Positions 16,450 to 61,610 of a stretch of 64,000 nucleotides of DNA are shown in pieces (within the stretch, counting starts at the first letter, position 1; each line of letters opens with the position of its first letter). Source of the DNA: Candidatus Multivorans sp. (GTDB taxonomy: Bacteria > Acidobacteriota > Thermoanaerobaculia > Multivoradales > Multivoraceae). The notes beneath the pieces are model-generated. The model ran no database searches and was not told the origin of the DNA. It saw nothing but the letters and a program-made list of their open reading frames with translations. The DNA lies in NCBI GenBank assembly GCA_965247095.1, contig OZ251997.1, positions 4,387,689-4,451,688 of the forward strand, written 5' to 3'. A program made the position numbers and the translations under genes.

Positions 16450-16490
16450 GAGCTTGCGCGGCGGAAACCCGCGTCGTGCCGAGTTCCGGC

Positions 16491-16524
16491 CCCCTGGGAA
16501 CGCGGGCATCCTGCCCGCATCTGG
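16491..16524. repeat. REP-like palindromic element, type A copy, plus orientation
   Basis: cccctgggaacgcgggcatcctgcccgcatctgg, immediately downstream of the eno stop. Stem GCGGGCA/TGCCCGC. Confidence 0.7.
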
Positions 16525-16534
16525 CGCTCAGGGG

Positions 16535-17920
<1,386 letters not shown>

Positions 17921-17926
17921 CTACTA

Positions 17927-17960
17927 CCGGATGCGGGCAGGATGCCCGCGTTCCCAGGGG
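17927..17960. repeat. REP-like palindromic element, type A copy, inverted relative to 16491-16524
   Basis: ccggatgcgggcaggatgcccgcgttcccagggg, in the eno upstream region. Confidence 0.7.
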
Positions 17961-18014
17961 TGTCGCGGCCGCCGGCGCAGTAAGATGCGCCGGTTCCAAG
18001 AGAGGGGATTGCGC

Positions 18015-28628: not shown

Positions 28629-28731
28629 GCCCCTGGGCACCCGGGTGGCGCGATCCGCGCCACCCGCGAACCACTCCGTGCGCCCGTCATCGGACCCACG
28701 GATGGCACGCGGGCGTCTCGCCCGCATCCGG
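28629..28731. repeat. Composite MITE/REP-like element (type B + type A halves) between the MBL hydrolase gene and pfkA
   Basis: cccctgggcacccgggtggcgcgatccgcgccacccgcgaaccactccgtgcgcccgtcatcgg... followed by ...cacgcgggcgtctcgcccgcatccgg. Internal 10-bp inverted repeat GGGTGGCGCG/CGCGCCACCC. Its reverse strand encodes the recurring MTGARSGSRVAR... pseudo-peptide. Confidence 0.7.
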
Positions 28732-28791
28732 CGCGGAGCGCCGGCTCGCGGTAGACGCCAACCGCGCGACTGTGCGAACCTCCATAGTCCG

Positions 28792-29874
28792 ATGAAGCGG
28801 ATCGGCATCAGCACCGGCGGCGGCGACGCGCCCGGACTCAACGCCGTGATCCGGGCCGTGACCCTGGCCTCCATTCGCCGCGGCTGGGAGGTCGTCGGCC
28901 TTCTGCGCGGTTACGGTGCCTTCTTCGACCCCAGCCAGATCCGCATCCTCGATCGCGACGCGGTGCGCGGCACGACCCATCTCGGCGGCACGATCCTGGG
29001 CACGCGTAGCGGCGGAAACCCGTTCGAGCGGCGGGTCGAGCAGGACGACGGCGCCGTCGTCGTGGAGGACGTAACCGAGGAGGCCGTGGCGGGCTTCCAT
29101 CGTCTTGACCTCGACGCCCTGGTGGCAGTCGGGGGCGATGGTTCCATGCGGCTCGCGCTCAAGTTGCACGGGCTCGGCGTGCCGGTGGTCGGCGTGCCGA
29201 AGACGATCGACAACGACCTCGCAGGCACCAACGTCACGTTCGGCTTCCACACCGCCGTCGACGTGGCGACGGCGGCGATCGAACGTCTGCACTCGACCGC
29301 AGAAGCCCACGACCGCATCTTCGTGGTCGAGCTGATGGGCCGTTACGCCGGTTGGATCGCCCTGTTCGCGGGCGTCGCGGCGACGGCCCAGGTCATCCTG
29401 ATCCCCGAGATCCTGTACGACATGGACCACGTCTGCGATCACCTGATGGCGCGTGAGGGACGCGGCCGGCACTCGGCGGTGGTCGTGGCGGCCGAAGGCG
29501 CCCGACCGGTAGGCGGCGACTTCACGTGGTCGAAGGGCGTCGGAGGCGGCCCGGCCGAGCGCCTGGGCGGCGTCGCCGAGCGGGTAGCAGCCGAGATCCA
29601 CGAACGGACCGGCAAGGAGACGCGGACCGTGACCCTGGGCCACCTCCAGCGTGGCGGCCAACCGATTCCCTACGACCGCCTGATCGCGTTGCGCTTCGGC
29701 GCCGCCGCCGTCCGTCAGATCGAAGCGGGGAAGTTCGGCGTCATGGTCGCCCTCTACCCGCCCACGGTGCGCGCCGTGCCCCTCGAACGCGCCGTGGGCC
29801 GCATGAAGAGCGTCCCGCTCGAAGCCGACGTCGTCGCCACCGCCCGCGACCTCGGCATCTGCCTCGGCGAGTAG
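28792..29874 (+). CDS. pfkA: 6-phosphofructokinase
   Basis: MKRIGISTGGGDAPGLNAVIRAV ... VAVGGDGS ... PKTIDNDL ... MGRYAGW: canonical PFK motifs. The upstream part of the listed ORF (28645-28791) is repeat-derived. Confidence 0.9.
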   Translation: MKRIGISTGGGDAPGLNAVIRAVTLASIRRGWEVVGLLRGYGAFFDPSQIRILDRDAVRGTTHLGGTILGTRSGGNPFERRVEQDDGAVVVEDVTEEAVAGFHRLDLDALVAVGGDGSMRLALKLHGLGVPVVGVPKTIDNDLAGTNVTFGFHTAVDVATAAIERLHSTAEAHDRIFVVELMGRYAGWIALFAGVAATAQVILIPEILYDMDHVCDHLMAREGRGRHSAVVVAAEGARPVGGDFTWSKGVGGGPAERLGGVAERVAAEIHERTGKETRTVTLGHLQRGGQPIPYDRLIALRFGAAAVRQIEAGKFGVMVALYPPTVRAVPLERAVGRMKSVPLEADVVATARDLGICLGE

Positions 29875-29995
29875 CCCCTGGGAACCCGGGTGGCGCGGTC
29901 CGCGCCACCCTCGAACCACTCCTCGCGCCCGTCATCGGGCACGCGCACCGGCGTCGCGTAGACTGCGTCCCTTCGGGCCAGCCGCGGATGCCGGT
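29874..29995. repeat. Composite MITE/REP-like element (type B) starting at the pfkA stop codon
   Basis: tagcccctgggaacccgggtggcgcggtccgcgccaccctcgaaccactcctcgcgcccgtcatcgggcacgcg... Near-identical to 28629-28693. Its 3' part is degenerate. Confidence 0.65.
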
Positions 29996-40345: not shown

Positions 40346-40469
40346 GATGATCTCGCTCGGGTTGGGATCGGGCGGATGCGTCTTCGCGCAGAAACGCCTC
40401 CGGCGGCGGGCGATCATAGCCGATTCGCGAGCCCGAGTGGCCTGTGGCCGCCCATGCCGGCGCTTCGCG

Positions 40470-40501
40470 CCGGATGCGGGCAGGATGCCCGCGTTCCCAG
40501 G
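40470..40501. repeat. REP-like palindromic element, type A copy
   Basis: ccggatgcgggcaggatgcccgcgttcccagg, in the leuS-rpmE2 intergenic region, preceded by a second small hairpin ggcgcttcgcgcc. Confidence 0.7.
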
Positions 40502-45466: not shown

Positions 45467-45931
45467 ATGAGCGCAACGAACACGGAACAGACGGAGCAGG
45501 AGTCGAAGTCCCGGTCGCTGGTGGACTCGGCCGTGGAGACGGCGCACAAGGTCGCGCTCGCCGGCGTCGGTGTCGCGGGCGAGGCGGCCGATGCGGGGGT
45601 CAAGGTCTTCGACCGGCTGGTCGAGCGCGGCGAGAAGATCGAGGCGCAGGGGAAGGTGTCTCTCGATGCACTACGGGTCAAGGCCGAGGAGCGCGTCGGG
45701 CAGGTGCGCACCGTGGCCGGAGAGCGGTTCGAGAAGACCCGGGCCCGGGCCAGGTCCGGGATTGACGAGCAGTTGGAGCGCCGGCTGGAGAAGATCGGGG
45801 TGCCCGGCAAGGCTGACTTCCAAGCGGTGGTCGAGCGGCTGAGCGCGATCGAGGCGCGCCTCGAGGCGCTGGAGAAGAAGCCGAAGCCGCGGCGGCGGAC
45901 GGCGAAGAAGGCGCCGGCGAAGGCCGAGTAG
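45467..45931 (+). CDS. Phasin-family protein (PHA-granule-associated protein)
   Basis: 154 aa, coiled-coil, Ala/Glu/Lys-rich with a basic C-terminus (KKPKPRRRTAKKAPAKAE). Confidence 0.6.
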   Translation: MSATNTEQTEQESKSRSLVDSAVETAHKVALAGVGVAGEAADAGVKVFDRLVERGEKIEAQGKVSLDALRVKAEERVGQVRTVAGERFEKTRARARSGIDEQLERRLEKIGVPGKADFQAVVERLSAIEARLEALEKKPKPRRRTAKKAPAKAE

Positions 45932-46003
45932 CCGGTCCGTCTTCGATCTCAGCGTCCACTCAGGTTGACGCTGCACACTCAAAGCTCGCTTCGAGGAGGC
46001 TGA

Positions 46004-46663
46004 GTGACGATGAAGACAGTGAGGAGTTCCCGGGCTTGGATTCCGGCAATGCTGATCGTAGTGTGGTCTCACGCGGCCCCGGGCCTGGCAGAAGACGGCA
46101 GGTTCGATCTGGGCTTCCGTACGGACATTGGTCTGGGTACCGGCCATCCTTCCAACGACATTCCGGGGTACAGCCTGTTCGGTCACTACGGGCTCAACGA
46201 GCGCTGGAACATCGGCTTCGGCCTGGATCACTCGCCGGCATTCGACTTTGAACGAACACCCGGCGTTCTGGGACTGGAGACGCCGGAAGTGATCGACGCC
46301 AAGGGTGCGTCCACGACGTTCTCAGGCTGGCTGGAACGCGTCTACGCGCGCCCTGAAGGTCGCATCGAGTGGTTCTGGAATGTCGGCCTGGGGTTCAGTT
46401 CGGTCGACATGAAGGACGTGGCGGGACCCGTAGTGGGAGGAGGCGCCTTCGACATCGCGACAGACGCCGGAAGCGAGTTTCTGGCCATGGTCGGCGTGGG
46501 TGTGAGGTTCTGGTTCGGCGACAGTTGGGGGTTCGAGTTCGCGATTCACCATGATCGGCATTTTGCGGACTGGAAGCTGACGGATCGAGTCTCAGGCAGG
46601 ACCGGAACGGTCTCCGACTACGAAGTGAACACGATCAACGTAGGTTTCCTGAAGAGGTTCTGA
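46004..46663 (+). CDS. Outer-membrane beta-barrel protein (OmpW/OmpA-like small porin)
   Basis: 219 aa with a signal peptide, alternating hydrophobic beta-strand pattern and a C-terminal aromatic residue (GFLKRF). Confidence 0.6.
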   Translation: MTMKTVRSSRAWIPAMLIVVWSHAAPGLAEDGRFDLGFRTDIGLGTGHPSNDIPGYSLFGHYGLNERWNIGFGLDHSPAFDFERTPGVLGLETPEVIDAKGASTTFSGWLERVYARPEGRIEWFWNVGLGFSSVDMKDVAGPVVGGGAFDIATDAGSEFLAMVGVGVRFWFGDSWGFEFAIHHDRHFADWKLTDRVSGRTGTVSDYEVNTINVGFLKRF

Positions 46664-46700
46664 ACCCGGGCTCTTGGGGCCACGCGGACGACCTGCCGGG

Positions 46701-49340
46701 TTAGGTCGTCCGATGGCGGGCCCTTCGCGGGCTTCGCAGCGCGCGGACGAACTCGCGCACGGTCGCCGGTCGGGCGCCGGCCCGAATCCGTTCCTCCGCC
46801 AGGTCGAACGCCATCTTCCACTGCCGGCGCAGAATGCCGTGGGCGGCGAAGAATCCATAGCGGCGGTCGTACATGTGGGTGGCCTCCGAAGTGACGCCGT
46901 TCACTTCGAGTACGCGGATGCCCTCGCCGCGCTGGAGCGCTTCGCCGCTCGGGACCCGTACGTCGAAGCGGCCGAAGTCGAAGCCGTCGTAGGCGGTGCT
47001 GATCGCGTTCATCGCCTGTTCGAGTTCCTGAGTGTGGAGGTGGTTCGCGTCGAGGAAGATCGTGCCGCGGGAGTGCGCGCCGACCTCGGTCAGTTCGACG
47101 ATTTCGCCGGCTGCCGGCGTTCGCGTCGCGGCATCGGGATGCTCCTTCGCGTAGATGGGTGCGATCGCAACGGCGCGGCGGTCCAGGAGGATCAGCCGCT
47201 CCAGGGTGCTCCGGCCGTCGCCGGTCACGGTCGGCCGCAACTTGTGGGTGATCGAGAAAACGTGCCCGTCCGACCGGCCGGGATGCCGGGCCCAGAAGAC
47301 GCCGTACTCCTCGCCCGCGACGTACTCCTGTACGAGTGCCGGTCCGGGCGTCGCCTCGAAGAACCCGGCCGCGTCGGCTTCTGAGTGCGCTACGGCGATG
47401 CCGCGTCCCCGCTCGCCGGTGTCGGGCTTGAGGACGGCGGGGTAGTCCAGGTCTTGGTCCGCCAGGAACCGCCGGAGCGCGTGGAATCGCTCCTCGCTGT
47501 CTCCCGGCGCTAGCCGCCGCCAGACCGGCAGGGCGTCGCCAATGCCGGCCAGGCCGTCCAGGATGTCGCTCTTCGACTCCCCGAGCAGGCCGCCCAGGGG
47601 CATGGCCGGGTTGATCGCGGTGAAGAAGGCAGGTCGGCCGCGGCGCAGGCCCTGCCACAGGATGAAGAGAGCCAGGGGCGGGTAGAAGGCCCACATGGGC
47701 CAGAACTCCCAGTGCCGGATTCGCAGCAACCGGCCGCGCCAGAGCCGGCGGCCGCGCCAGGTGAGGAGCGGCAGGACGAACGTGCGCACGCCGAAGATCA
47801 GGAGCGCCAGCGCCAGCGCCGCCGCGAGCAGGCCGCCGGGCAGGCGGCCGCCGAACCGCTCGACGGCCTCGCGGCCCAGCAGCGCGTTCATGCCCACGAA
47901 CGCGGGCGTCCAGATCGCCACGGCCAGGGCGAAGTACATGCAGAAGCGGAGCAGGCTGGTGCGCAGGATGCCGGCGGCGAGGCAGGTCGGCAGCCGCGAA
48001 CCGGGCAGGAAGCGGCTGATCAGGACGACCACCAGGGCACGTCGCCGCAGCCATGCGGAGGCCTCCTCGATCGCGGCCTCGCTGACCCACCACTTGAACG
48101 GCGGCAGCTTGAGCGCGGGCCGCCCGAGGATCCGGGCCAGCCAGGCGAGTCCCAGGTCGCTGCTCAGGATGCCGATGTAGCAGGCGGCTACGGCGACGGG
48201 GAAGTCGAGCCGTCCCTGGGCGATGAGCAGACCGGCCGTGATGCAGGTCAGATCCTCACTCAGATAGGCGGCGAACACGAGGAGCAGGAAGACGATGAGC
48301 AGGGCCGGGCCGGTGAACGGCGGCAGGTCCGTGTCGTCGAACGGCATCGCTGCCCGCCGCAGTCGCTCCGGTTCGGCGTCGGCGCGTGTCGGCGCCTCGC
48401 CGGCTTCGACGCGGCCGAGGAACTCCTCGATTCGTTCCGCCAAGTCGTCGCCGCCCCGGAACAGGAAGAAGTGACTGTCGGGGCGCATCCACAGCTCGCT
48501 GTGGGGCACGATGCGGTGGTGTTCCAGGGCCGCCGCGGCCGGCACCAGCGGATCCTGTTCGCCGTGGACGATGAACACCGGCGCTTCGAGCGCCTCGAGG
48601 ATCCCGCGCATCGGGCGCTGGTCCGTGTCGTAGAAGTTGCGGGCGTAGGAGCGGGCGACCGGACTGTCGAAGGCGCCGAAGTGCGGGACCAGATTGCGCA
48701 GTCCCCAGAACAGGCCGAGCTGGAGACCGTGCAGGCCGTGGTTCACGGTGTAGTCGCCGAGCAGTTCGAGTTCCTGGACGCCGATCGAGGCGACGAGAAC
48801 GAGCGACGCCACCCGATCGGGGGAGTCGTCCGCCATGTGCAGTGCCGGGCCGCCGCCCATGCTGAAGCCGAGGGCATGGAAACGTTCGACTCCCAACTCG
48901 TCGAGCAGGACGACAGCCGCTTCGGCGTGGGCGCGGATCGAGTAGTCGTTCACCCTGCGCTCGGAGGCGCCGAAGCCGGGAAGGTCGGGGGCGAGGACGC
49001 GGCGCCGTTCCGCGAGCCGGGGCGCCAGACGCCGGAAATCGTCCGCGCTGCCAGGTGAACCGTGGAGAAGTACGAGGGGCAGGGGCTCGTTCTCCGATTC
49101 GGCGCCGGCCGGCGCCGGCCACTCGCGCCACGCCAACCGGACCGGCCGGGAATCGCTCCCGGGAAGCGGCGCCTCGACGGTTTCTCGGCCCGGCGGCAGC
49201 GGCGCCGGGTCGGCCGTGACGCGCGCCAGAGTCGAGGCCAGCAGCAGCGCGGCGTAGACCCCGAGCAGGACCTTCAGCCAGATCCGGCGTCGTCGCGGGC
49301 GCCGATCGTCAGTCCGCTTCGGGAATGCCGATGGGACCAT
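46701..49340 (-). CDS. Three-domain fusion: alpha/beta hydrolase + DedA/VTT membrane domain + ATP-grasp ligase-like domain
   Basis: 879 aa. N-terminal hydrolase (LVLLHGSPGS...GFSMGGG...). Middle DedA signature (...LISRFLPGSRLP... with ~6 TM helices). C-terminal ATP-grasp-like region (...YPAVLKPDTGERGRGIAV...LVQEYVAGEEYGVFW...RVLEVNGV...). Overlaps olsA by 32 nt. Confidence 0.7.
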   Translation of the reverse strand: MVPSAFPKRTDDRRPRRRRIWLKVLLGVYAALLLASTLARVTADPAPLPPGRETVEAPLPGSDSRPVRLAWREWPAPAGAESENEPLPLVLLHGSPGSADDFRRLAPRLAERRRVLAPDLPGFGASERRVNDYSIRAHAEAAVVLLDELGVERFHALGFSMGGGPALHMADDSPDRVASLVLVASIGVQELELLGDYTVNHGLHGLQLGLFWGLRNLVPHFGAFDSPVARSYARNFYDTDQRPMRGILEALEAPVFIVHGEQDPLVPAAAALEHHRIVPHSELWMRPDSHFFLFRGGDDLAERIEEFLGRVEAGEAPTRADAEPERLRRAAMPFDDTDLPPFTGPALLIVFLLLVFAAYLSEDLTCITAGLLIAQGRLDFPVAVAACYIGILSSDLGLAWLARILGRPALKLPPFKWWVSEAAIEEASAWLRRRALVVVLISRFLPGSRLPTCLAAGILRTSLLRFCMYFALAVAIWTPAFVGMNALLGREAVERFGGRLPGGLLAAALALALLIFGVRTFVLPLLTWRGRRLWRGRLLRIRHWEFWPMWAFYPPLALFILWQGLRRGRPAFFTAINPAMPLGGLLGESKSDILDGLAGIGDALPVWRRLAPGDSEERFHALRRFLADQDLDYPAVLKPDTGERGRGIAVAHSEADAAGFFEATPGPALVQEYVAGEEYGVFWARHPGRSDGHVFSITHKLRPTVTGDGRSTLERLILLDRRAVAIAPIYAKEHPDAATRTPAAGEIVELTEVGAHSRGTIFLDANHLHTQELEQAMNAISTAYDGFDFGRFDVRVPSGEALQRGEGIRVLEVNGVTSEATHMYDRRYGFFAAHGILRRQWKMAFDLAEERIRAGARPATVREFVRALRSPRRARHRTT

Positions 49341-50157
49341 GAACGTCGCCGAGTGCCGCCAGTTCTTCGTTCGAGACCATCGGCCGGAAGCTACCTTCCA
49401 TCGTCTCCCGCAGTTGGCGGGCCAGCACCTTCCGATCCGCGCTCTGGAGCGGCTCGTTGCCGAAGGCCACTTCCGCTTCGATGCGGCGAAGCTGCAGGAG
49501 CTCAGGAGCGTGGGGGGTCATCGCCATGTAGCCCCACCAGGCGACGCTCAGGAACGCCGGCGTCTCGTCGGGCGGCGTCTCGTAGCGGACGACGGCCCAG
49601 TGGACCGGCAGTTCCTGCCCGGCCGCGGGCGCGAGCAGGGAGGGCTTCAGCGGGGCGATTTCGTTGCCGGGTGTCGACGTGCCTTCCGGGAACAGGATCA
49701 CCGGGTCGCCCGCCGCGAGCGCTTCGGCAATCTGTTCGCCAACCTTCGTGACGTCGCGCCGCCGGCCGCGGTCGACGAAGATGGTGTCGGCGGTGCGGCA
49801 CATGGCGCCGACGACCGGCCAGTCCCGGATCTCCGCCTTGGAGACGAAGCGCCCCGGGGCCAGCGCGGAGAGCAGGAAGACGTCGATATAGGAGAGGTGG
49901 TTCGAGATCAGCAGGAAGGGCTCCTTCGGCGGTTCGCCGCGCACCGTGACCCGGCAGCCGAGGATGGCCAGACTGGCGCGTCCCCACCGGCGCAGCACCG
50001 AGCGCCGGACGGCTCGCCAGGCCAGGGGAGCGCGCCGGGCCAGGAAGGGCCGCAGGATGAGTAGCGGGAACCAGGCGGCCAGTGCCGCCAGGAGGACAGC
50101 CGGCCCCCGCCAGATCATCCGCCAGATCCGGAGAGGACTTCTGCTCTTGGGCCGCAT
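49309..50157 (-). CDS. olsA: Lyso-ornithine-lipid O-acyltransferase / PlsC-family 1-acylglycerol-3-phosphate acyltransferase
   Basis: 282 aa with PlsC motifs (SNHLSYIDVFLL and VILFPEGTS). Follows the olsB-like gene with a 4-nt gap. Confidence 0.7.
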   Translation of the reverse strand: MRPKSRSPLRIWRMIWRGPAVLLAALAAWFPLLILRPFLARRAPLAWRAVRRSVLRRWGRASLAILGCRVTVRGEPPKEPFLLISNHLSYIDVFLLSALAPGRFVSKAEIRDWPVVGAMCRTADTIFVDRGRRRDVTKVGEQIAEALAAGDPVILFPEGTSTPGNEIAPLKPSLLAPAAGQELPVHWAVVRYETPPDETPAFLSVAWWGYMAMTPHAPELLQLRRIEAEVAFGNEPLQSADRKVLARQLRETMEGSFRPMVSNEELAALGDVHGPIGIPEAD

Positions 50158-50159
50158 CC

Positions 50160-51017
50160 TCAGCGCGGCGCTGGCGGCACTTCGGGTGCCGGTGGCGCCT
50201 CGTCCAGCCCGAAGATCAGCCGGGTCCTGCGGCTGAGAGCGGTCGTGTCCATCAGGACCAGGTAGTCGATCGTTTTGAACTCGCGGTCGATCGCGGGGCG
50301 GCTGCAGACCAGGGCGCCGTAGCGCAGGTAGGTGGCGAAGAGGGGCGGGATCTTGATGTCAGGCAGTGCGGCCACGCGATCGTCGGGCGCCTCGCAGAGG
50401 GTGTGGGGGAGGGGAGGTACGTCGAACTCGGGGTGGACCTTGCCCGCCGCCTGCAGTTGCCGGTAGAGCCGGATGCCGGCCGCCTGATCCTGACTGGTCA
50501 ATGAACAGCAGCCGAACAGGTAGCGGCACTGGCTGTGGACCAGGTACCGGGCCAGACCCTTCCAGAGCAGGAACAGTACGGTCCGCTTGCGGTGGTTGCG
50601 TTGAATGCAGGCGCGGCCGATCTCGACCGACTGATCGAGAACGCTTCCGGGCAGGACGTCCAGCTCGTACTCACCGGCCGAGTAGAAGCCGCAGCCGCGG
50701 GCGGCCATCGCCGCCGTCTGCATGCGGTAGGTCCCAATGAGGTGGCCGCCCACGTCGTCGACCAGCATGTGGTGGCAACTCGCGTCGAAACGGTCGGTGT
50801 CGCGGCCGGTGGCGAAGGACTCCTCGAGGCCCTCGCCCAGTTCCAGGTTGAAGACCTCGAAGCGCAGCGCAAGGAGCCGGTCGAGGTCCTGGGCGGTGCG
50901 CGCGAAACGGAGCCGGTAGCTGCCGACTTCGATCTCGCCGTCGGGGAGAAGCTCCGGGTTGGGAAGAGTGCCCGGCGGCTCGACAGGTCGGGACGGGAGA
51001 CTCGCCGACTCGGTCAT
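50160..51017 (-). CDS. olsB: GNAT-type N-acyltransferase, ornithine-lipid OlsB-like (hemolysin-like family)
   Basis: The real start is the ATG at ~51015-51017 (MTESASLPSRPVEP...). The listed ORF extends upstream through Arg-rich sequence. The core ...YRLRFARTAQDLDRLLALRFEVFNLELGEG... fits the OlsB/N-acyl-amino-acid synthase family (from memory). Confidence 0.65.
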   Translation of the reverse strand: MTESASLPSRPVEPPGTLPNPELLPDGEIEVGSYRLRFARTAQDLDRLLALRFEVFNLELGEGLEESFATGRDTDRFDASCHHMLVDDVGGHLIGTYRMQTAAMAARGCGFYSAGEYELDVLPGSVLDQSVEIGRACIQRNHRKRTVLFLLWKGLARYLVHSQCRYLFGCCSLTSQDQAAGIRLYRQLQAAGKVHPEFDVPPLPHTLCEAPDDRVAALPDIKIPPLFATYLRYGALVCSRPAIDREFKTIDYLVLMDTTALSRRTRLIFGLDEAPPAPEVPPAPR

Positions 51018-51895
51018 GAGCCCGCCCCGGTCGCGGCGCGTATCCACTCGGTAGTGGGCACCGTCAGGAAGAGGCGGTCGTCCTTGCGCCTCAGGATGCC
51101 GGAAACCGCGACCGGCTGGCCCACCCAGTCGAGCACCTCGGTCCCCATCGGCTGGCCGCGTTCGTCCAACAGATGGACCAGACGGCGTTCGTCGTTCTCC
51201 GTTCGGACCAGCAGTGCCGCCGGGATGCCGCCGCGGATGCAGAGGGAGGCGCAGTCCCGGTGGGGCTTGCCGCGGCCCGGCTTCATGGCGCCGAGGTAGC
51301 ACTTCGTGTCGACGATTTCGCCGACGAGGGTATGGGCGCGCAGGTAGAGGCGGTCGACCTCTGCGCCCGGTGGCGGAACCACTCCAGCCGCCGCGTCTTC
51401 GCTCTCACGAGCGGGGGGCAAGCCACCGGTTCCGAGGCCGCTTGGAGAGTCCGGTTCCGCCGGAGATCCTCCGTCGACGCCTCCTTCGGTGAGTTCCAGG
51501 GAATGCACTTCGAGCATCGCCGCTTCCGGGTTCCGGATCAGCGTGCCGGAGAGCTGGATTTCTCTGGATGGTGCGGCCGACCAAGGCGCGTTGGGAGGCT
51601 CATTCGCGTCGAGCCCGTGCTTTCCTTCCGCGACCAGAAGGTAACCCGCGGCAGGTCCGTCCGCCGTGAGCAGGCGGGGATGGGGATCGATGAGCAGTTC
51701 GCCGCTGTAGTCCCGCAGCGTGCCGTACTCGAACACTCCTTCGTCGAAGCGTTCCAGCAGCAGGGCCAGGCCGGCGCCGAGCGCCGCGGCCAGCAGCAGG
51801 AGCCCGATCACGGCGCGGCGGGCGAACCGGGAGATCCCGGGCGGCGTCTCATCGAGGTAGCCGACGTAGAACTCGGGTGGCGCGACCCGCGCCAC
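51014..51895 (-). CDS. Hypothetical membrane-anchored protein with Cys-containing C-terminal domain
   Basis: There is no ATG near the N-terminal hydrophobic anchor (...ISRFARRAVIGLLLLAAALGAGLALLL...). A candidate GTG at ~51893-51895 lies inside the type-B repeat. 4-nt overlap with olsB. Start is uncertain. Confidence 0.45.
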   Translation of the reverse strand: MARVAPPEFYVGYLDETPPGISRFARRAVIGLLLLAAALGAGLALLLERFDEGVFEYGTLRDYSGELLIDPHPRLLTADGPAAGYLLVAEGKHGLDANEPPNAPWSAAPSREIQLSGTLIRNPEAAMLEVHSLELTEGGVDGGSPAEPDSPSGLGTGGLPPARESEDAAAGVVPPPGAEVDRLYLRAHTLVGEIVDTKCYLGAMKPGRGKPHRDCASLCIRGGIPAALLVRTENDERRLVHLLDERGQPMGTEVLDWVGQPVAVSGILRRKDDRLFLTVPTTEWIRAATGAGS

Positions 51896-52050
51896 CCGTG
51901 AACCAGTCCGTGCGCCCGTCAATCGGGCGCACGGATGGCACTCGTCGCGGCGTTCGCCGGTCACGAGGGCTCCTCGGGCGTGTCGGGGGGCGCTGTGCAG
52001 TCGTCGTTCCCGGGCCCCGGATGCGGGCGAGACGCCCGCGGTCCCAGGGC
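51868..52050. repeat. Composite MITE/REP-like element (type B half ... type A half)
   Basis: gaactcgggtggcgcgacccgcgccacccgtgaaccagtccgtgcgcccgtcaatcgggcgcacggatggcac...ccggatgcgggcgagacgcccgcggtcccaggg. Overlaps the 3' end of the Rieske gene and the 5' end of the next gene. Confidence 0.65.
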
Positions 52051-53079
52051 CGGCTCGGCGTGCGTACCCGGCGGGTTCGGCCTCGGGTCGACGAGTACCC
52101 GGCCACCCTCGACGCGGACGTTGAAGGTCGGGATCGTCTCGGTGAAGGGCGGCGGCGAGCATCCGTCCTCAGGGCGGTACTGGTAGCCGTGCCAGGGGCA
52201 GGTGATGCAGCCGTCGATCACGCGGCCCTCGCCGAGCGGCCCGTTCTGGTGCTGGCAGACGTTCGATACGGCAGCGATCTTCTCGCCGCCATCCGTCCGG
52301 TAGCGGAAGACGGCTACCCGCTCGCCGCTGAGCACGAAGATGCGGGCGCGGTCGAGGGGGATGTCCGAGACCGCGCAGACATCGACCGCGGCGTCATCGG
52401 TGGTCGCCGCCGGGGACGACGCGCGCCCCCGCCAGCCCGCAACCAGGTGCAGCGAGGCGATGCCGACGAACCCCACGCCGAGCAGCCCCGCGAGCTGGGC
52501 AGGCCGTTCGGCCGCCTGCAAACTGCCCAGCGCCACGTGGACGAGGATCAGCCCGTAGGCGACGTAGACCAGCATGTGCAGCGACTTCCACACCGGCGCC
52601 GTCAGGTTCGCGAGCCAGAAGTCGTGCGAGGTCGCCGCCATCAGGAACAGGATGACGAGCGCCGTGAGGCCGAGCGCCTGGAAGGGGAACTGGGTCAGGC
52701 TGTCGTAGTTGCCGTTGCTCGCCAGCACGCTGACCAGGGGATTCAGGACCCCGAGACCGTGGAACTGGACGACAGCGAACCCGCCGTGGGCGGCCGCGAG
52801 CAGGAACATGCAGACGCCGAGGTGGCGGCGGTTGTAGAGCAGGGGCAGGAAGCGCCGGTCGAGCCGGCACAGCGGACCGATGGCGAGCACCACGTGAAGC
52901 AGCAGCAGGGCGCCCGCGCCCAACGCCCGGATGAGCAGGGTCTCGATCGTTGCCTGGGGCCGCGTCGAGATGCCGATGCCGACGAACAGGCCCAGGAAGA
53001 CCACCACGCCTACGGCGACGCCCAAGTCGTAGAGCCTCTTGTTGCGGTTCCAGAGAACCGCCTGGTACCCGGCGCTCAT
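51961..53079 (-). CDS. Ferric-reductase-like (heme b) transmembrane domain fused to a Rieske [2Fe-2S] domain
   Basis: The real start is the ATG at ~53077-53079 (MSAGYQAVLWNRNKRLYDLGVAVGVVVFLG...). The TM region has paired His (LLLHVVLA, AAAHGGF, TSHDFW, KSLHMLVY). The C-terminal Rieske motif is CQHQNGPLGEGRVIDGCITCPWHGYQY (CxH...CxxH). The last ~30 aa (...GPRASRPHPGPGNDD...) are repeat-encoded. Confidence 0.7.
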   Translation of the reverse strand: MSAGYQAVLWNRNKRLYDLGVAVGVVVFLGLFVGIGISTRPQATIETLLIRALGAGALLLLHVVLAIGPLCRLDRRFLPLLYNRRHLGVCMFLLAAAHGGFAVVQFHGLGVLNPLVSVLASNGNYDSLTQFPFQALGLTALVILFLMAATSHDFWLANLTAPVWKSLHMLVYVAYGLILVHVALGSLQAAERPAQLAGLLGVGFVGIASLHLVAGWRGRASSPAATTDDAAVDVCAVSDIPLDRARIFVLSGERVAVFRYRTDGGEKIAAVSNVCQHQNGPLGEGRVIDGCITCPWHGYQYRPEDGCSPPPFTETIPTFNVRVEGGRVLVDPRPNPPGTHAEPALGPRASRPHPGPGNDDCTAPPDTPEEPS

Positions 53080-53282
53080 GGTTGCGCTTCCGCGTCCGGA
53101 TCGTCTTCGCTCGGTTCGGGCGCGTCTGGGGGTTCTACCCAGGGCGCGTCGATGGCGGTGGGCAACTTGTCCACGAGCGGCGGTTCGGGGCGCAAGAGGA
53201 GCGCGGCGGTTAGCAGCCCCGCCACGATCGGGGCCAGCACCGCCCAGACCAGACGGTGACGCCGTCGCAAACCGCGGATCAC
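53076..53282 (-). CDS. Small hydrophobic protein (68 aa), translationally coupled
   Basis: MIRGLRRRHRLVWAVLAPIVAGLLTAALLLRPEPP... 4-nt overlaps at both ends with its neighbours. Confidence 0.4.
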   Translation of the reverse strand: MIRGLRRRHRLVWAVLAPIVAGLLTAALLLRPEPPLVDKLPTAIDAPWVEPPDAPEPSEDDPDAEAQP

Positions 53283-53557
53283 GGGGAAACCCGCCTCTGC
53301 CGACCGGCGGCCGCGTCACGGTGAGCGTTGCGCTCCGTCGGAGGCTGCCGGCCGGTGAGCCACCTCAGTAGGACCACCGGCCACAACGCGGCAACGCCGG
53401 GCAGGATGATGAGCCGAAAGCCAAGGCCGGTTGCCTTGGCGGCAGGATCGACGCGGCCCACGCCGCGCCAGACGAAGAACGGGGCGAAGGCCAGTCCACA
53501 GGCGATGTACACGGCGCAGAGCAGCACCACGACCTCGGCGGCGCGCTCGATGGACAT
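53279..53557 (-). CDS. Small membrane protein (92 aa, two TM helices)
   Basis: MSIERAAEVVVLLCAVYIACGLAFAPFFVW...LIILPGVAALWPVVLLRWL. Confidence 0.45.
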   Translation of the reverse strand: MSIERAAEVVVLLCAVYIACGLAFAPFFVWRGVGRVDPAAKATGLGFRLIILPGVAALWPVVLLRWLTGRQPPTERNAHRDAAAGRQRRVSP

Positions 53558-53652
53558 CGCGGGGAGTATACGCGCGCAGCGTGGCGAACCTGCCGTAGAC
53601 TCCGCACCGGTCTTGCCTTGGACAAGTCAACCTGGACGTAGAGGAAGAGAAC

Positions 53653-54795
53653 ATGCGGGTACCGTTTCGCTGCACGGCGACGATCCACGGAGGAGGCCTG
53701 AGATCGCTGCTGCTTGCGAGCCTGATGGCGGCACTGGCGTTCCCGGTCCTTGGCCAGGGAGGCACGCAGGACGTGACCGTCGAGGCCTACGAGCCGCGCT
53801 CGACGCTGAAGGTCGCGGGTGGCTCGGTCACGCGGGCGAAGTTCCCCTTCGTCGACGCCCACGCGCACTTGCGCGGCAGCGACCCGGCGCGGATCGACCA
53901 GATGGTCCGCGAGATGGACGAGATGAACATGGCCGTGTTCGTGAACCTGAGCGGCGGCAGCGGAGAGGGACTGAAGGCGAACATCGCCGCCACCAAGGGC
54001 CGCTACCCGGGACGGTTCGTCGTCTTCGCAAACGTCAACCTCTCGGGATTGGACCAGCCCGGTTGGGGGGAAGAGGCCGCCGCGCAGCTTGAGGCGGATG
54101 TTGCGGCCGGCGCCCAGGGCCTCAAGATCTACAAGAACCTCGGCATGTTCCTGACCGACAGCACCGGCGAGCGGGTGCCGGCCGACGATCCGCGCATCGA
54201 TCCGGTGTGGGCCAAGGCGGGCGAGTTGGGCATCCCGGTCCTGATTCACGTCGGTGAACCGTCGCCGTTCTGGGCGCCCTGGGACGAGCACAACGAGCGC
54301 TGGCTGGAGCTGAAGCAGTTTCCGAACCGCCGCCGCGATGACCCCTTGCGCTTCGCCTCGTTCGAGCAGACGATGACCGAACAGCACAACCTGTTCCGCC
54401 GTCATCCGGACACGATCTTCATCAACGCCCATCTTGGCTGGCTGGGCAACGACCTGGGGCGGCTCGGGGACCTGCTCGACGAACTGCCGAACATGTACAC
54501 CGAGATCGGCGCCGTGGTAGCGGAACTCGGCCGCCAGCCGCATACGGCGGCGGCGTTTCTCACCAAGTACCAGGACCGCGTCCTGATGGGCAAGGACGCC
54601 TACGCGCCGAGCGAGTACCACGTCTACTTCCGCGTGCTCGAGACCGCCGACGAGTACTTCGACTACTACCGCAAGCGCCACGCGCACTGGAAGATGTACG
54701 GGCTCGACCTGTCGGACGAGGTGCTCGAGAAGATCTACTTCCGCAACGCGCTGAAGATCATCCCCGGCCTCGACCGGCGCCTGTTCCCGGAGTGA
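53653..54795 (+). CDS. Amidohydrolase-2 (TIM-barrel metal-dependent hydrolase) family protein, secreted
   Basis: 380 aa with a signal peptide, VDAHAHL metal-binding start and later His/Asp positions (IHVGEP, INAHLGW). Confidence 0.75.
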   Translation: MRVPFRCTATIHGGGLRSLLLASLMAALAFPVLGQGGTQDVTVEAYEPRSTLKVAGGSVTRAKFPFVDAHAHLRGSDPARIDQMVREMDEMNMAVFVNLSGGSGEGLKANIAATKGRYPGRFVVFANVNLSGLDQPGWGEEAAAQLEADVAAGAQGLKIYKNLGMFLTDSTGERVPADDPRIDPVWAKAGELGIPVLIHVGEPSPFWAPWDEHNERWLELKQFPNRRRDDPLRFASFEQTMTEQHNLFRRHPDTIFINAHLGWLGNDLGRLGDLLDELPNMYTEIGAVVAELGRQPHTAAAFLTKYQDRVLMGKDAYAPSEYHVYFRVLETADEYFDYYRKRHAHWKMYGLDLSDEVLEKIYFRNALKIIPGLDRRLFPE

Positions 54796-55256
54796 GTTCC
54801 CGGCTGGCCCGGGGAGAGGCGACCCGGCGCGAGGAGGGCCAGGAGACCCTGCCCGCCCAGGGCCTCTTCCGCGGCCGGACGGTGGCGCGGCGGTTCGAGT
54901 CGCCGGACGGCTTCATCGTCCTGGTGGGGAAGACCGCCGCCGACAACGACGATCTGAGCCTGCGGCTTGCCCGTCCCGCCGACTTCTGGCTGCACGCGCC
55001 GTCCGGCGCCGGGTCGCATGTGCTGGTGCTCAACGACTCTGGCGTCGACCGGCTGCCACGGGCCACGCGGGACTTCGCTGCGGCGCTGGCCGCGCGCTAC
55101 TCCAAGTCCCGCGCCGGCGGCAGGGTGGCCGTGCATCTCGCCCGCGGCCGGGACCTGAGCAAGCCGCGCGGGGCGCCGCCCGGACGGGTCGCGCTACGAC
55201 GGTACGAGAGCGTCTTCGCCCGCCCGGCGGCCTTCGGCCGGGTCGACGACGCTTGA
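54792..55256 (+). CDS. NFACT-R / DUF814-domain protein
   Basis: 154 aa: ...FIVLVGKTAADNDDLSLRLARPADFWLHAPSGAGSHVLVLN... The start overlaps the previous stop (ATGA). Confidence 0.65.
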   Translation: MSSRLARGEATRREEGQETLPAQGLFRGRTVARRFESPDGFIVLVGKTAADNDDLSLRLARPADFWLHAPSGAGSHVLVLNDSGVDRLPRATRDFAAALAARYSKSRAGGRVAVHLARGRDLSKPRGAPPGRVALRRYESVFARPAAFGRVDDA

Positions 55257-55280: not shown

Positions 55281-55538
55281 CTATGGACGCCCATCGCTTC
55301 GGAGCCGCGCTTCGACTTCTTCCATGATGGAAGGTACCGTCCTCTCACTCGGGCCGCTGTCCAGGCCTTCCTGTACGGCAGCCTGAAGGATCTCGAAATC
55401 GACCCGCCGCTCCCGATCGCGCCGAATCAGATCCCGGATGTACTCGCTGTCATTGGTGAAGTGGCCCGCGGCGATCCGCGCCTTGACCCACTGATCCTGC
55501 AGGTCCGTCAGGGTGATCGTCTTTCGAATAGTCCTCAT
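55281..55538 (-). CDS. ParD-family (RHH, COG3609) antitoxin, apparently orphan
   Basis: 85 aa: MRTIRKTITLTDLQDQWVKARIAAGHFTNDSEYIRDLIRRDRERR... No ParE/RelE-like ORF follows; the convergent DUF814 gene ends 25 nt away. Confidence 0.7.
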   Translation of the reverse strand: MRTIRKTITLTDLQDQWVKARIAAGHFTNDSEYIRDLIRRDRERRVDFEILQAAVQEGLDSGPSERTVPSIMEEVEARLRSDGRP

Positions 55539-58590: not shown

Positions 58591-59295
58591 GCGACACAGC
58601 AGCGTATTGTGCGTTTCGAGGTCGGCTGACCAGATCAGACGCGCTCCGTCCCGCCACTGAATGTCCTCGTAGCCATCCTTCGGTCTCACCGCGGCTGCGC
58701 TGTGCTCCACCGCTGACGGCCATTCGGCGTGGTCGAATCCAAGCATGCGCCAGCCGTCAGGCTCTGCCGTCGCTGCGAACTGGCATGGGCCGACGCCGGG
58801 CACCGGTTCGGTCTCGTCTTCGCAAGCGCGGTCGAGCGGCGCCTCATGGATCACCAGGCATCGCCAACCAGCATTCGTGACTGCGATCGTCGCTCCCGTG
58901 GCGGTATCCGTGAACTGTGCAATGAGTCCGCCATCGCCCATCTGCTGGTTACGGCGACCGATGTACTCCAGACCTGTACCGTCCTCCTTGAAGTCCTTGG
59001 CGACGACGTTCAATTGCAAGGGGTACTCCGCGTTGAAGACGAATGTCTCGGCATTGAAGGACCGCTCCGTCGTGATCGGCGTCGAATCCTCGATGATCAG
59101 GCGTTCGCCCAGATAGAAGGCGAACCAGTTGTCGGCCCAGACCTCGCCCTTGATGGACAGGGCGCCCGGACTGTTGACAACGGTGACGTTGGGCGGATCG
59201 TCGCAACCGGCCAGCAAGGCCGCCAAGATCGCCAACCCGAGCGGCGCGATCCGCGCCGCTCGTGAACCGGTCCATGTGCCCGTCATCGGGCGCAT
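58570..59295 (-). CDS. Lipoprotein (lipobox LLAGC)
   Basis: Start at the ATG at ~59293-59295 or ~59284-59286 (MRPMTGTWTGSRAARIAPLGLAILAALLAGC). The n-region is encoded by a type-B repeat copy. Its 3' end overlaps the ccmC 3' end by ~21 nt (convergent). Confidence 0.5.
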   Translation of the reverse strand: MRPMTGTWTGSRAARIAPLGLAILAALLAGCDDPPNVTVVNSPGALSIKGEVWADNWFAFYLGERLIIEDSTPITTERSFNAETFVFNAEYPLQLNVVAKDFKEDGTGLEYIGRRNQQMGDGGLIAQFTDTATGATIAVTNAGWRCLVIHEAPLDRACEDETEPVPGVGPCQFAATAEPDGWRMLGFDHAEWPSAVEHSAAAVRPKDGYEDIQWRDGARLIWSADLETHNTLLCRLTVEQP

Positions 59296-59305
59296 GGATG
59301 ACAGG
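59238..59305. repeat. Type-B MITE/REP-like element copy (variant), followed by a (CAAGGT)x3 tandem at 59305-59325
   Basis: gagcggcgcgatccgcgccgctcgtgaaccggtccatgtgcccgtcatcgggcgcatgg (hairpin GAGCGGCGCG/CGCGCCGCTC), then ggtcaaggtcaaggtcaaggtc. Confidence 0.6.
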
Positions 59306-59410: not shown

Positions 59411-61480
59411 TCAAGGCAGCGCGAACGCCAGCAGCTCCGGCACAAAGTCGGTCTCCGCGCGCCCGGCCACGGTCAGTGCGATGTACTGCCGGCCCTCGTA
59501 CACATACGTCATCGGCGTGCCGAGGCCGCGCGCGGGCAGCGGCACCTCGGCGATCACGTCGCCGGTGCGCTTGTCCCGCGCCACCAGGCGGTTGCCGCCG
59601 TCGTCGTCGTCGGCGTGCTGGCCGTGGATCAGCAGGGTCTTGGTCAAGAGCGGCCCGGTGTAGGTGTCGCCGCCGAGGGGCGGCAGGTCGAGGTGCTCCA
59701 GGCGCGGGTGCCGGCGCAGCCGGCCGTTGTTGCCGAGCGGCTTCATCCACACGTGCTCGCCGGTGTTCAGATCGATCGCGGTCATGCGCGTATAGGGCGG
59801 CTTGAACAACGGCAGACCCTCGGGCATCTCGGGCCGCCGGCCGCGGCCGCCGTGGGTGTAGCGGAGAGTGCCGCCCTCCAGCGGATCCGGCGTGTAGAAC
59901 GTGACCATGCTGAACACGTTCCTCGACGGCACGTAGAGCCAGCCGGTCTCCGGGTCGACCGCGGCGCCGTACCAGTTCGCGCCGCCGCCGGCCGAGGGCC
60001 GGAAGATCGTGCCCAGCTTGCCGCCGCGCACCGGCAGCGACGGCGGCGTGAACAGGGGGCCGATCTCGAAGTCCTTGATCACGTCGAGCGCCATCTGGCG
60101 GATCTCGGGCGTGAAGTCGGCCAGATCGTCTTCGGTCACTCCCTGGTACTCGAAGGGCACCGGCTTGGTCGGAAACGGTTGGGTGGGGGATGCCGTGTCG
60201 CCGGGCATCGTCGCCGGCGGCACCGGACGCTCTTCGATCGGCCACACCGCCTCGCCGGTGACGCGGTCGAAGACGTAGAGGAAGCCCTGCTTGCTGACCT
60301 GGGCGACGATCTGCCGGGGTTCGGCGCCGTCTCTGCCCGGAAGGTCGATCAGCGTCGGCGCGGCCGGGAAGTCGTAGTCCCAGAGGCCGTGGTGGACGGC
60401 CTGGAAGTGCCAGAGCTTGTCGCCGGTCTCGACGTCGACCGCGACCAGGCTCTCCGAGTACAGGTTGTCGCCCGGCCGGTGGCCGCCGTAGTAGTCGTTC
60501 GTCGCGGTGCCGATGGGCAGGTAGACGATCCCGTGCTCGTTGTCGCCGGAGAGCATCGTCCACACGTTCGCGTTGCCGGAGTAGCGCCAGGACTCGTCGC
60601 CCCAGGTCTCGACCCCTTCGTCGCCCTCCTGCGGCACGGTACGGAACACCCAGCGCAACTCGCCGGTGCGCGCGTCCCAGCCGCGCACCCAGCCCGGGAT
60701 CGACTCCTTGGTGACCCGTCGGTCGGCGATCGAAGCGCCGGTGACGACGACGTCGCGGACCACGACCGGAGGCGACTGCATCGAGTAGAGGAGGGCGTTC
60801 AGGTAGTCCCGCTCGCCGCGGTTGGCGCGCGGCAGACCCTCCATCAGGTCGACGCGGCCTCCGTCCCCGAACTCCTCGATCGGCCGCCCCGTCCGGGCAT
60901 CGACCGAGATCAGGTAGCCGTCCCCCGTGCCCCAGTAGACGCGGCTGTCCGCCTTGTCGCCCTCCTCGCCGTTGGTCCAGTAGGCGACGCCGCGCTGGTT
61001 CCAGACCACGGTCATCGTGGTGGTGCCCTTCTCGTAGCTCTTCGGGTTGTAGGCCCAGACCGTCTCGCCGGTCGCCGGGTGAACCGCGGCGCCTATCGAG
61101 ATCGGCGTGTTCAGCAGCAGCAGACCGTCCTGCATCAGAGGCGTCGCCTTCAGGTTGCGGATGAAGGGGGCGCGCCCCGCACGCCAGAGCAGCGGATCCT
61201 CGTCGAGCAACTGGTCGAAGATCAGGTCGCGGTTGGCGTACCACTCGCCGCCCGACTCCGTCTTGCTGAGAAATCCGTCGACCGAACGCCAGCGCCAGAC
61301 GTTCTCCAACTGGCCGAAGTTGCCGGCGTCGATCTGGTCGAGCGGCGAGTACTTCGTCGATCCCACGTCGCCGCCGTAGCTCGGCCACTCGCCGGCCGGC
61401 GCGCCGTGTTGGCCGCCTGACGGCGCGGCCAGGAGACCGGCGCAGACGGCGGCGGCAGCGGCGATGCGGATCCTCGGCAT
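59411..61480 (-). CDS. PQQ-dependent (quinoprotein) dehydrogenase, paralog of 18015..20036
   Basis: 689 aa with signal peptide [54 protein letters not shown] matches [34 protein letters not shown] of the paralog. GGGANW and IGPLFTPP are conserved. The listed 59403..62462 1019-aa Arg-rich ORF is a frame artefact. Confidence 0.8.
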   Translation of the reverse strand: [689 protein letters not shown]

Positions 61481-61610
61481 GTTCCTGTCTCGGGTGTGGG
61501 CGGAAGGCGGTCGCCAATCGTACCTTCCGGCCCACTGGGTCCTGTGCCGGAGACGGGTTGAAGCCGGCGCCCGGCGCTAAGCTCGCCGGGGAACCGCACA
61601 GAGAGGACCG

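Follow-up and report, generated by a model that had tools for sequence, protein, structure and literature searches.

A four-gene ferric-reductase/Rieske module with a predicted periplasm-facing Cys/His protein, encoded beside OlsBA-like genes in Candidatus Multivorans

In the 2013 survey of ferric-reductase domains (FRDs), MsrQ/YedZ was the only characterised bacterial family (PMC3591440). MsrQ and STEAP form a branch defined by an arginine in place of the first canonical heme histidine (PMC12525009; PMC3591440); both carry one heme and a flavin, and in MsrQ the one heme, on the periplasmic side, is ligated by H91 and H164, and the flavin mononucleotide (FMN) site is made up of R77, R78 and H151 (PMC12525009). 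The survey also listed an FRD joined to a Rieske domain as model M4, among six kinds of modular extension to bacterial FRDs; it gave no function, partners or context for M4 and remarked that variants of this kind are as a rule restricted to close relatives (Zhang et al., 2013; PMC3591440). Here we describe a protein of this architecture, C, and the four-gene module A-B-C-D to which its gene belongs, in a 64,000 nt stretch of DNA (the window) from Candidatus Multivorans sp. (GCA_965247095.1, contig OZ251997.1, positions 4,387,689–4,451,688 of the forward strand; G+C about 69%). The module would exchange the flavin or NAD(P)H input of described systems for a fused Rieske [2Fe-2S] cluster, and C is paired with an unannotated family of predicted periplasmic proteins, D. 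By analogy with MsrPQ, NOX and STEAP, we lean, with modest confidence, towards A-B-C-D being an envelope redox module that conducts electrons outward from the cytoplasm across the inner membrane.

The two-domain architecture itself has been catalogued before. In a literature search we did not find the four-gene module, the D family or its motif, fusions of C with D, Rieske-tagged neighbours or a linkage of such a module to aminolipid genes; the search also found no study of an FRD+Rieske fusion, and nothing on Candidatus Multivorans.

All four genes lie on the minus strand: gene A (53279–53557; a 92 aa open reading frame, ORF, for a two-helix membrane protein), gene B in a short form (53076–53282; 68 aa, GTG start), gene C (51961–53079; 372 aa, ATG start) and gene D (51014–51964; 316 aa, GTG start), which encodes an anchored protein. 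They are followed on the same strand by genes for an OlsB-like N-acyltransferase (50160–51017; 285 aa; PF13444, 93 bits), an OlsA-like O-acyltransferase (49309–50157; 282 aa; PF01553) and an 879 aa fusion of an alpha/beta hydrolase (ABH) with a DedA/VTT domain (46701–49340), the last gene of a co-directional block that runs for 6.9 kb from 53557 to 46701. At the A/B junction, which reads CCGTGATC, the B start lies on the A stop in a GTGA overlap; the B/C junction reads CCATGAGC, with the ATG of C on the stop of B (ATGA); D starts on the C stop at a GTGA (51964–51961); and the stop of D lies on the start of the olsB-like gene (ATGA). Every junction from A through olsB-like is thus a 4-nt overlap, i.e. 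translational coupling is complete, with the start of D corrected to 51964 (see below). An earlier note on this DNA, made without database searches, had proposed the ORFs of A, B and C with their overlaps, the 4-nt overlap of D with olsB and a co-directional block of about 7 kb, and in these respects the ORF list and sequence agree with it. None of the module ORFs contains an internal stop.

The FRD-Rieske protein C

The membrane part of C (residues ~19–214; 52438–53025, minus strand) matches Ferric_reduct PF01794 over residues 55–178 (52546–52917) with 49.2 bits against a cut-off of 28. It has six hydrophobic helices, with Lys/Arg-rich sequence at the N-terminus, in the loop at residues 62–85 and after the sixth transmembrane (TM) helix (TM6), from which hydropathy and charge predict an N-in, six-TM, C-in topology that would place the Rieske domain in the cytoplasm. 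An AlphaFold2 (AF2) model (predicted local distance difference test score, pLDDT, 74) has six long helices and, after them, a domain rich in beta structure. In a pairwise alignment with E. coli MsrQ (31% identity over 162 aa), R84-R85 of C correspond to R77-R78 of MsrQ, H98 to H91, H168 to H151 and H181 to H164. We class the membrane domain by alignment as MsrQ/STEAP-type, because the MsrQ site residues align and an arginine occupies the position of the first canonical heme histidine; together with the Pfam match and the six helices, this bears out the six-TM ferric-reductase/MsrQ-type domain that had been proposed from the sequence.

The surface-proximal heme pair (NOX2 H115/H222; MsrQ H91/H164) is present in C as H98/H181, both about 98% conserved in 81 sequences, and a single outer heme is well supported. 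Of the cytoplasm-proximal pair (NOX2 H101/H209), the equivalent of H209 is present as H168 and the position of H101 is taken by R84. A flavin may occupy the inner site, as may a second heme should the family-specific H86, two residues after R84, pair with H168; the earlier description of the domain as di-heme is not established, given Arg84/Arg85 at the position of MsrQ Arg77/Arg78. Eight TM histidines of C are 85–99% conserved in the same 81 sequences. Five of them (62, 86, 107, 152 and 211; 52445–52896 in the window), each within that range, are specific to the family and do not occur in E. coli MsrQ; these could ligate an additional heme or metal. Four of the five lie towards the cytoplasmic side. 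The NCBIfam MsrQ model NF003831 scores 39.1 bits on C, under its equivalog cut-off of 130, and the best partial NCBIfam matches (Rieske ferredoxins, NirD and MsrQ) all fall below their equivalog cut-offs.

The Rieske domain (residues ~232–331; 52087–52386, minus strand), predicted to be cytoplasmic, matches PF00355 over residues 232–319 with 55.5 bits against a cut-off of 20.3. Its ligands C275/H277/C294/H297 (CxH-x16-CxxH) are invariant in the 81 sequences. Among PDB sequences the closest relatives are the dioxygenase ferredoxins CarAc, BphF/BphA3 and the NDO ferredoxin (phmmer, E 6e-6), and Foldseek matches the modelled domain (mean pLDDT ~86, with ~71–93 per 10-residue block) to CarAc, NDO and BphA3 with E ~2e-6, a target template-modelling (TM) score of 0.8 and a root mean square deviation of 2.3–2.7 Å (CarAc ~2.4). 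C shares with these ferredoxins the CxH...CPxH ligand pattern, the predicted fold and, presumably, a shuttle rather than a catalytic role; in contrast to them, its domain is tethered to a membrane heme protein, and no oxygenase or ferredoxin reductase is linked to it in the window. NOX and the long-form FRE proteins likewise carry a C-terminal cytoplasmic electron-input domain on an FRD and transfer electrons outward (PMC3591440), a direction assigned to C by analogy. However, the input domain of C is a Rieske [2Fe-2S] ferredoxin instead of FAD_binding_8/NAD_binding_6, and the first canonical heme histidine (NOX2 H101) is replaced by arginine, as in the MsrQ/STEAP branch. We therefore rejected C as a member of the NOX/long-form FRE type, since it has no FAD or NAD(P)H domain and only a Rieske domain C-terminal to the FRD.

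The direct fusion of the two domains, also put forward in the earlier note, is confirmed by the Pfam matches, and it recurs far beyond this genome. A homologue search with C returned at least 8000 matches, and PF01794 and PF00355 were both present in all 120 among the matches listed. A relative was encoded at 566 of 599 pattern matches in species-representative genomes, and in the best 80 loci of these 566, which were searched by tblastn with the window proteins and which underlie all locus counts given here, the FRD+Rieske architecture was the same in 80 of 80. Misassembly, which the note had allowed for as the origin of the fusion, is ruled out by this conservation in the 120 homologues and 80 loci. 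Nor is the module uncommon, as had been claimed: the architecture was catalogued in 2013 (model M4; PMC3591440), and the C matches are joined by a D family of 2759 clusters at 50% identity, 1282 of them with E<=1e-30 in an exhaustive profile search.

Dual Sec/Tat-inserted membrane Rieske proteins carry a twin-arginine before the last TM helix and have an extracytoplasmic Rieske domain (PMC5449189). C was considered as such a protein and rejected: there is no RR motif ahead of TM6, and the even helix count together with the charge distribution points to a cytoplasmic Rieske domain. The single-chain C::D proteins described below give an extra argument against the dual Sec/Tat type, since they need a further TM helix after the Rieske domain.

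The anchored protein D and its partnership with C

The start of D was set by aligning the C/D junction with those of the closest genomes (Candidatus Multivorans and other Thermoanaerobaculia metagenome-assembled genomes). In congeners L001–L006 the two genes share a native 4-nt overlap (..TCATGA.. or ..TCGTGA..) and D begins M-x-G-x-R-x-D-D/E-F-Y-V-G-Y. Because this overlap is kept in the window, as the GTGA at 51964–51961, and the D frame is open from 51964 to its stop, D is 316 aa long from the GTG at 51964; the earlier note had placed it at 51014–51895, with a start at 51895 that is incorrect. Gene callers chose the corresponding start in the closest relatives, among them P0121 (316 aa).

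Hydropathy and charge, with an AF2 model, predict that D has a cytoplasmic N-tail, one TM helix and two periplasmic beta-barrel (OB-like) domains, N-in and C-out. A 27-sequence alignment shows a conserved EFYVGY in the N-tail, a basic stretch ahead of the single helix, and an invariant block, GEIVDxKC-x2-G-x-M-x-PG-x4-H-x2-CA-x2-C-x2-GG-x-P. The C-x12-H-x2-C-x3-C motif within it (KCYLGAMKPGRGKPHRDCASLC; 51239–51301, minus strand) was found in 263 of 264 family members, in which the median number of cysteines per protein is three. D had been described as a Cys-rich anchored protein; the anchor stands, and the cysteine richness does not, as there are only three cysteines, though these are invariant together with one histidine. 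We presume from this conservation that the motif is a metal or redox site. In the AF2 model (pLDDT 76.6) a TM helix is followed by the two beta-barrels, the second of which is interrupted by a loop and helix that bear the motif. Foldseek of this model against the PDB gave weak OB-fold matches only (SSB/PriB/RPA; E ~0.02, TM score ~0.2), which we read as indicating a fold class and not homology. D was also tried as a relative of YHS/TRASH domains and rejected, with no Pfam match at E<=1 and an hhalign probability of 0.6% against YHS neighbours of the module.

The adjacency of C and D, with the 4-nt overlap, is conserved, and in several lineages the two are fused. Single C::D chains of ~590–630 aa (FRD+Rieske+D) occur in P0285, P0350/L082 and P0378, the C tail running straight into ...FYVGY..., and among the 80 loci C and D share one ORF in four (L016, L025, L055 and L056). 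These fusions argue for a physical partnership of C and D; they also place the N-tail of D on the side of the Rieske domain, predicted to be cytoplasmic, and therefore its barrels outside.

Gene A encodes a conserved motif, GFRLLILPGVAALWP, two hydrophobic segments and a Lys/Arg-rich C-terminal tail, and a homologue lies immediately upstream of C in 77 of the 80 loci. B has a basic N-terminal stretch, one TM helix and an acidic tail, predicted N-in and C-out. Neither A nor B has a match in Pfam, NCBIfam or PDB sequences. In other phyla B is longer (~150–190 aa) and carries a periplasmic domain, and the N-terminus MI.xLRxxHR with the TM helix is common to both forms; the short form was detected by tblastn in 18 of the 80 loci and the long-form cluster in at least 43. 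B is without the periplasmic domain across the whole Candidatus Multivorans-like clade (compare the long B at L065 5408–5986 and L082 1305–1754), and the domain would therefore be dispensable for the module there.

MsrPQ (E. coli YedYZ) is the closest described system. The heme ligands, FMN-site residues and six-TM, N-in topology of MsrQ are matched by C, and in both systems an FRD protein is paired with a dedicated periplasm-facing partner encoded next to it. The differences are substantial: C has a fused Rieske domain and five extra conserved histidines and does not reach the MsrQ equivalog cut-off; its partner D is a membrane-anchored member of an undescribed family with a Cys3-His motif, and not a molybdoenzyme; and two further small membrane proteins, A and B, belong to the module. 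A tblastn search with E. coli MsrP gave no match in the window or the 80 related loci. From these comparisons we take the module to work like MsrPQ but to fall outside that family.

Conserved neighbourhood and the proposed electron route

By tblastn, matches to A were found in 77 of the 80 loci, to C in 80, to D in 79, to the OlsB-like protein in 45, to the 879 aa protein in 41 and to the OlsA-like protein in 26, and the module order was always A-(B)-C-D. Outside the clade of the window, C identity is 54–68% across at least a dozen phylum-level groups. Carriers include Acidobacteriota (several classes), Gemmatimonadota, Planctomycetota, Verrucomicrobiota, Kiritimatiellae, Myxococcota, Bacteroidota and Calditrichia; and also KSB1, Krumholzibacteriota, Eisenbacteria, Spirochaetales, Acidimicrobiia and one gammaproteobacterium. 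Gene content and order thus indicate that the conserved unit is the four-gene A-B-C-D module and that it is widespread. In contrast to the survey's remark on such variants, the fusion here is not restricted to close relatives: it persists across these phyla, and A, B and D accompany it as fixed partners.

In 45 of the 80 loci, in many phyla, an OlsB-like gene is found within 6 kb; it follows D directly on the same strand in 26 of 79 loci and is convergent within 1 kb in nine. From this recurrence, the link to aminolipid genes is more than a local coincidence. As in the OlsBA pathway, the downstream genes of the window carry PF13444 and PF01553 and their best NCBIfam matches are the OlsB and OlsA models; the scores (126/124 bits against equivalog cut-offs of 320/350 for OlsB, and 145/134 bits against 300 for OlsA) are so far under the cut-offs that we call the pair OlsBA-like only, with the amino-acid head group not established. 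Unlike the module here, no Ols operon described in the literature that we searched has an FRD-Rieske module. Where it occurs, the gene for the 879 aa protein usually closes the aminolipid block; the C-terminal ~380 aa of the protein give only a faint ATP-grasp_3 signal (E=0.03), and an ATP-grasp assignment was rejected on this sub-threshold score.

ORF clustering of the 80 loci identified further recurrent companions: a DinB-like protein in 30, a TANGO2/NRDE (Ntn-hydrolase-like) protein in 23, a four-helix membrane protein without a Pfam match, which we read as DoxX-like, in 20, a probable short-chain dehydrogenase/reductase (SDR; our own reading, made without a domain scan) in 18 and a secreted YHS-domain protein in 15. 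Overlaps of 4 nt join all the genes of the P0350 contig (JGI; L082), namely those for A, B, C::D, OlsB-like, OlsA-like, DinB-like, TANGO2 and ABH+VTT proteins and a methyltransferase. Enzymes with a Rieske domain of their own adjoin the module in about 11 of the 80 loci, where Rieske+Glu_synthase (FMN) was found in 11 and Rieske fused to a thiamine diphosphate (TPP) enzyme in about eight; a Rieske+FMN_red protein adjoins the module in P0285. These Rieske-tagged neighbours suggest a Rieske-to-Rieske relay into the membrane protein. The tag is N-terminal in these cytoplasmic enzymes (L065 1125–5137, L082 and the P0285 contig), and the TPP enzyme is POX/ALS-like. Neither the DinB-like, TANGO2, DoxX-like, SDR or YHS companions nor the Rieske-tagged enzymes or a long B were found in the window at E<=1e-5.

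In the outward conduit that we favour, a cytoplasmic reductase would reduce the Rieske cluster, the Rieske-tagged FMN or TPP enzymes being candidates where they are present. Electrons would then pass to the inner cofactor of C, either a flavin as in MsrQ and STEAP or a second heme via H86, from there to the outer heme b at H98/H181, and finally to the Cys3-His site in D, which would reduce a periplasmic or outer-leaflet substrate; A and B would be accessory membrane subunits. The role of the module is probably tied to envelope or membrane remodelling, because it is recurrently co-encoded, and often translationally coupled, with OlsB/OlsA-like genes. A more specific proposal is that A-B-C-D is a phylum-spanning and hitherto unrecognised envelope redox system, its job coupled to aminolipid (ornithine-lipid-type) membrane remodelling, in which the conduit from Rieske cluster to heme drives D as a new periplasmic Cys3-His enzyme; this we hold only tentatively and would not yet bet on. 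If it were true, D would represent a new class of extracytoplasmic reductase beside MsrP, and the job might for instance be to modify aminolipids or other envelope components by redox chemistry, or to repair them, on the outer side of the inner membrane. Defining the module would add a new route by which cytoplasmic reducing power reaches the envelope, and could explain a conserved and unnoticed companion of OlsBA-type lipid clusters; culturable carriers (Engelhardtia mirabilis Pla133 and Fibrisoma montanum HYT19) make the question directly testable.

Several observations weigh against this outward conduit ending at D. The direction of flow is assumed from NOX, STEAP and MsrQ, and no reductase gene linked to the module was found in the window. 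Rieske ferredoxins typically have potentials of about -150 mV. The heme of E. coli MsrQ has a potential of -256 mV (PMC12525009), and the Rieske cluster would therefore be an uphill donor to an MsrQ-like heme. D has no relative in Pfam, NCBIfam or PDB sequences, profile search included, and its Cys3-His site could instead be structural (Zn) or a disulfide. The RR ahead of its helix is not invariant in the 27-sequence alignment, for which reason D is considered unlikely to be a Tat (twin-arginine translocation) substrate. For a Cys-ligated centre in the periplasm, the lack of a Tat signal is unusual. The periplasmic domain of B has been lost in the lineage of the window, and 30 of the 80 loci lack any lipid gene within 6 kb.

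Four other readings were weighed. The module might supply electrons for hydroxylation, desaturation or a head-group change of an OlsB/OlsA-like aminolipid, with D acting at the outer leaflet. The positions of the OlsB-like genes speak for this (right after D in 26 of 79 loci, convergent within 1 kb in nine, within 6 kb in 45 of 80), as do the extended conserved set of OlsA, DinB-like, TANGO2/NRDE and ABH-DedA proteins and the 4-nt overlaps through the whole operon in the window and L082. We nevertheless judge it unlikely: A-D show no likeness to known lipid hydroxylases, desaturases or methylases, the 30 loci just mentioned have A-D without a nearby lipid gene, and our literature search found no paper linking OlsB to a Rieske protein. 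The ornithine-lipid hydroxylases OlsC, OlsD and OlsE are unrelated enzymes. An idea of this kind, redox chemistry on lipids or the envelope, had been raised in the earlier note, from which the link to aminolipid genes survives as recurrent (45 of 80 loci); the lipid-modifying role itself was conjecture and finds no echo in the make-up of A-D. Equally doubtful is a metal reductase or hand-off system like STEAP or FRE, in which the outer heme would reduce Fe(III) or Cu(II) at the D site for uptake, cofactor insertion or detoxification. The invariant C, M, H, C, C cluster of D (KCxxGxMxPGxxxxHxxCxxxC) offers soft-metal ligands, its CxxxC plus His recalls the Sco copper proteins, and secreted YHS-domain proteins accompany the module in 15 of 80 loci, although D is unrelated to YHS (hhalign probability 0.6%). 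The FRD relatives STEAP and FRE are ferric/cupric reductases (PMC3591440). However, no conserved metal transporter (Ftr1, P-type ATPase or TonB receptor) lies nearby in the 80 loci and no metal-responsive regulator was seen, and the reading leaves the tie to aminolipid genes unexplained.

The remaining two readings appear less likely than these. Electrons might flow inward: the quinol pool, or a donor in the periplasm, would supply the heme domain, which would pass them via the Rieske cluster to cytoplasmic Rieske-dependent enzymes, with D as donor or sensor. The typical potential of a Rieske ferredoxin lies above that of the MsrQ heme, so that heme-to-Rieske transfer would run downhill; MsrQ binds quinone (PMC12525009); and some neighbouring enzymes bear Rieske domains of their own. 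But the characterised FRD proteins all move electrons outward (PMC3591440; PMC12525009), and the Rieske-tagged neighbours, being dehydrogenase-like proteins (FMN_red, TPP enzyme, Glu_synthase), are better suited as donors, which makes inward flow improbable. That the module is a decaying or inert relic in this genome is very improbable. Such decay might be read from B, at 68 aa against ~150–190 aa elsewhere, and from two repeat insertions at the C/D junction (described below), where the RNA folds into strong hairpins (-118.8 kcal/mol, z -4.3). Both insertions, however, are in frame and in non-conserved tails, the stop/start overlap is kept, and the ORFs are free of internal stops; in the seven closest loci C is 83–91% identical (74% in L007) and D 60–71%, with all ligands intact, and the short B is common to the genus-level clade L001–L008 and hence old and stable.

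Hairpin repeats and flanking genes

Two hairpin elements resembling repetitive extragenic palindromic (REP) sequences lie at the C/D junction. The element at 52003–52048 (core GGATGCGGGCGAGACGCCCGCG; repeat family D10 and inverted copies) lies in frame in the C-terminal tail of C, a non-conserved region to which it brings a net gain of 16 codons; C is accordingly 372 aa long here, as against 356 aa in most homologues, and keeps its native end (...PEEPS-stop). The second element (51861–51932; two hairpins including GGTGGCGCGACCCGCGCCACC; repeat families D8/D15) adds 23 codons in frame, at about 51871–51932, to the cytoplasmic N-tail of D and contains the GTG at 51895. The window holds six copies of the 52003–52048 family against none expected and three to four of the 51861–51932 family, with 0–0.2 expected across both, so the repeats noted earlier are real. 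Two statements about them need correction: the anchored protein does not simply follow a repeat, as the repeats were inserted in frame within the coding sequence of the C and D tails, and the C-terminus of C is not formed by 30 repeat-encoded residues, as only 16 in-frame codons were gained and the native C-terminus was retained.

Both insertions are specific to the window, L008 and P0001, and missing from the congeners L001–L006; D is likewise polymorphic, with 316 aa in P0121, which has the insert, and 289 aa in P0124, which lacks it. The repeats behave like elements of REP or MITE (miniature inverted-repeat transposable element) type, being dispersed, hairpin-forming and polymorphic in presence between close relatives. 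Without intergenic space at the C/D junction, they appear to have landed in frame in dispensable tails and to have broken neither gene, a lesser point being this in-frame insertion of REP-like elements into protein tails where intergenic space is lacking. A role as intrinsic terminator was considered and ruled out: the junction hairpins have no T-run (U-tract), and a scan of the minus strand from 46000 to 54200 found no terminator-like site. An Rfam search of 46000–55000 matched no family. Other dispersed copies lie at gene boundaries (9010–9059, 16489–16527, 17913–17960, 28629–28745, 29874–29945, 40456–40501 and 59225–59296); at 28629–28745 one copy of each family stands side by side, and the two may be halves of a composite element of ~120 nt.

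A scan for sigma-70 promoters gave no match, which is uninformative in the phylum of the host. Upstream of the module an amidohydrolase gene (53653–54795, plus strand) is divergent from gene A across a spacer of 95 nt, and the genes beyond it, for an NFACT-R_1 domain protein (54792–55256, plus) and a ParD-like antitoxin (55281–55538, minus), are unrelated to the module, as are those on the other flank, for a phasin (45467–45931, plus) and an outer-membrane beta-barrel protein (46004–46663, plus). Elsewhere in the window, two paralogous genes for pyrroloquinoline quinone (PQQ)-dependent dehydrogenases (PF01011, ~600 bits each) lie in opposite orientation at 17964–20036 (plus) and 59411–61576 (minus) and thus give rise to the long 70–76% inverted repeats I1–I5 of the repeat scan. 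Large FG-GAP repeat proteins (PF13517/PF01839), encoded on the minus strand at ~2500–9500, are the source of the direct-repeat families D1–D7.

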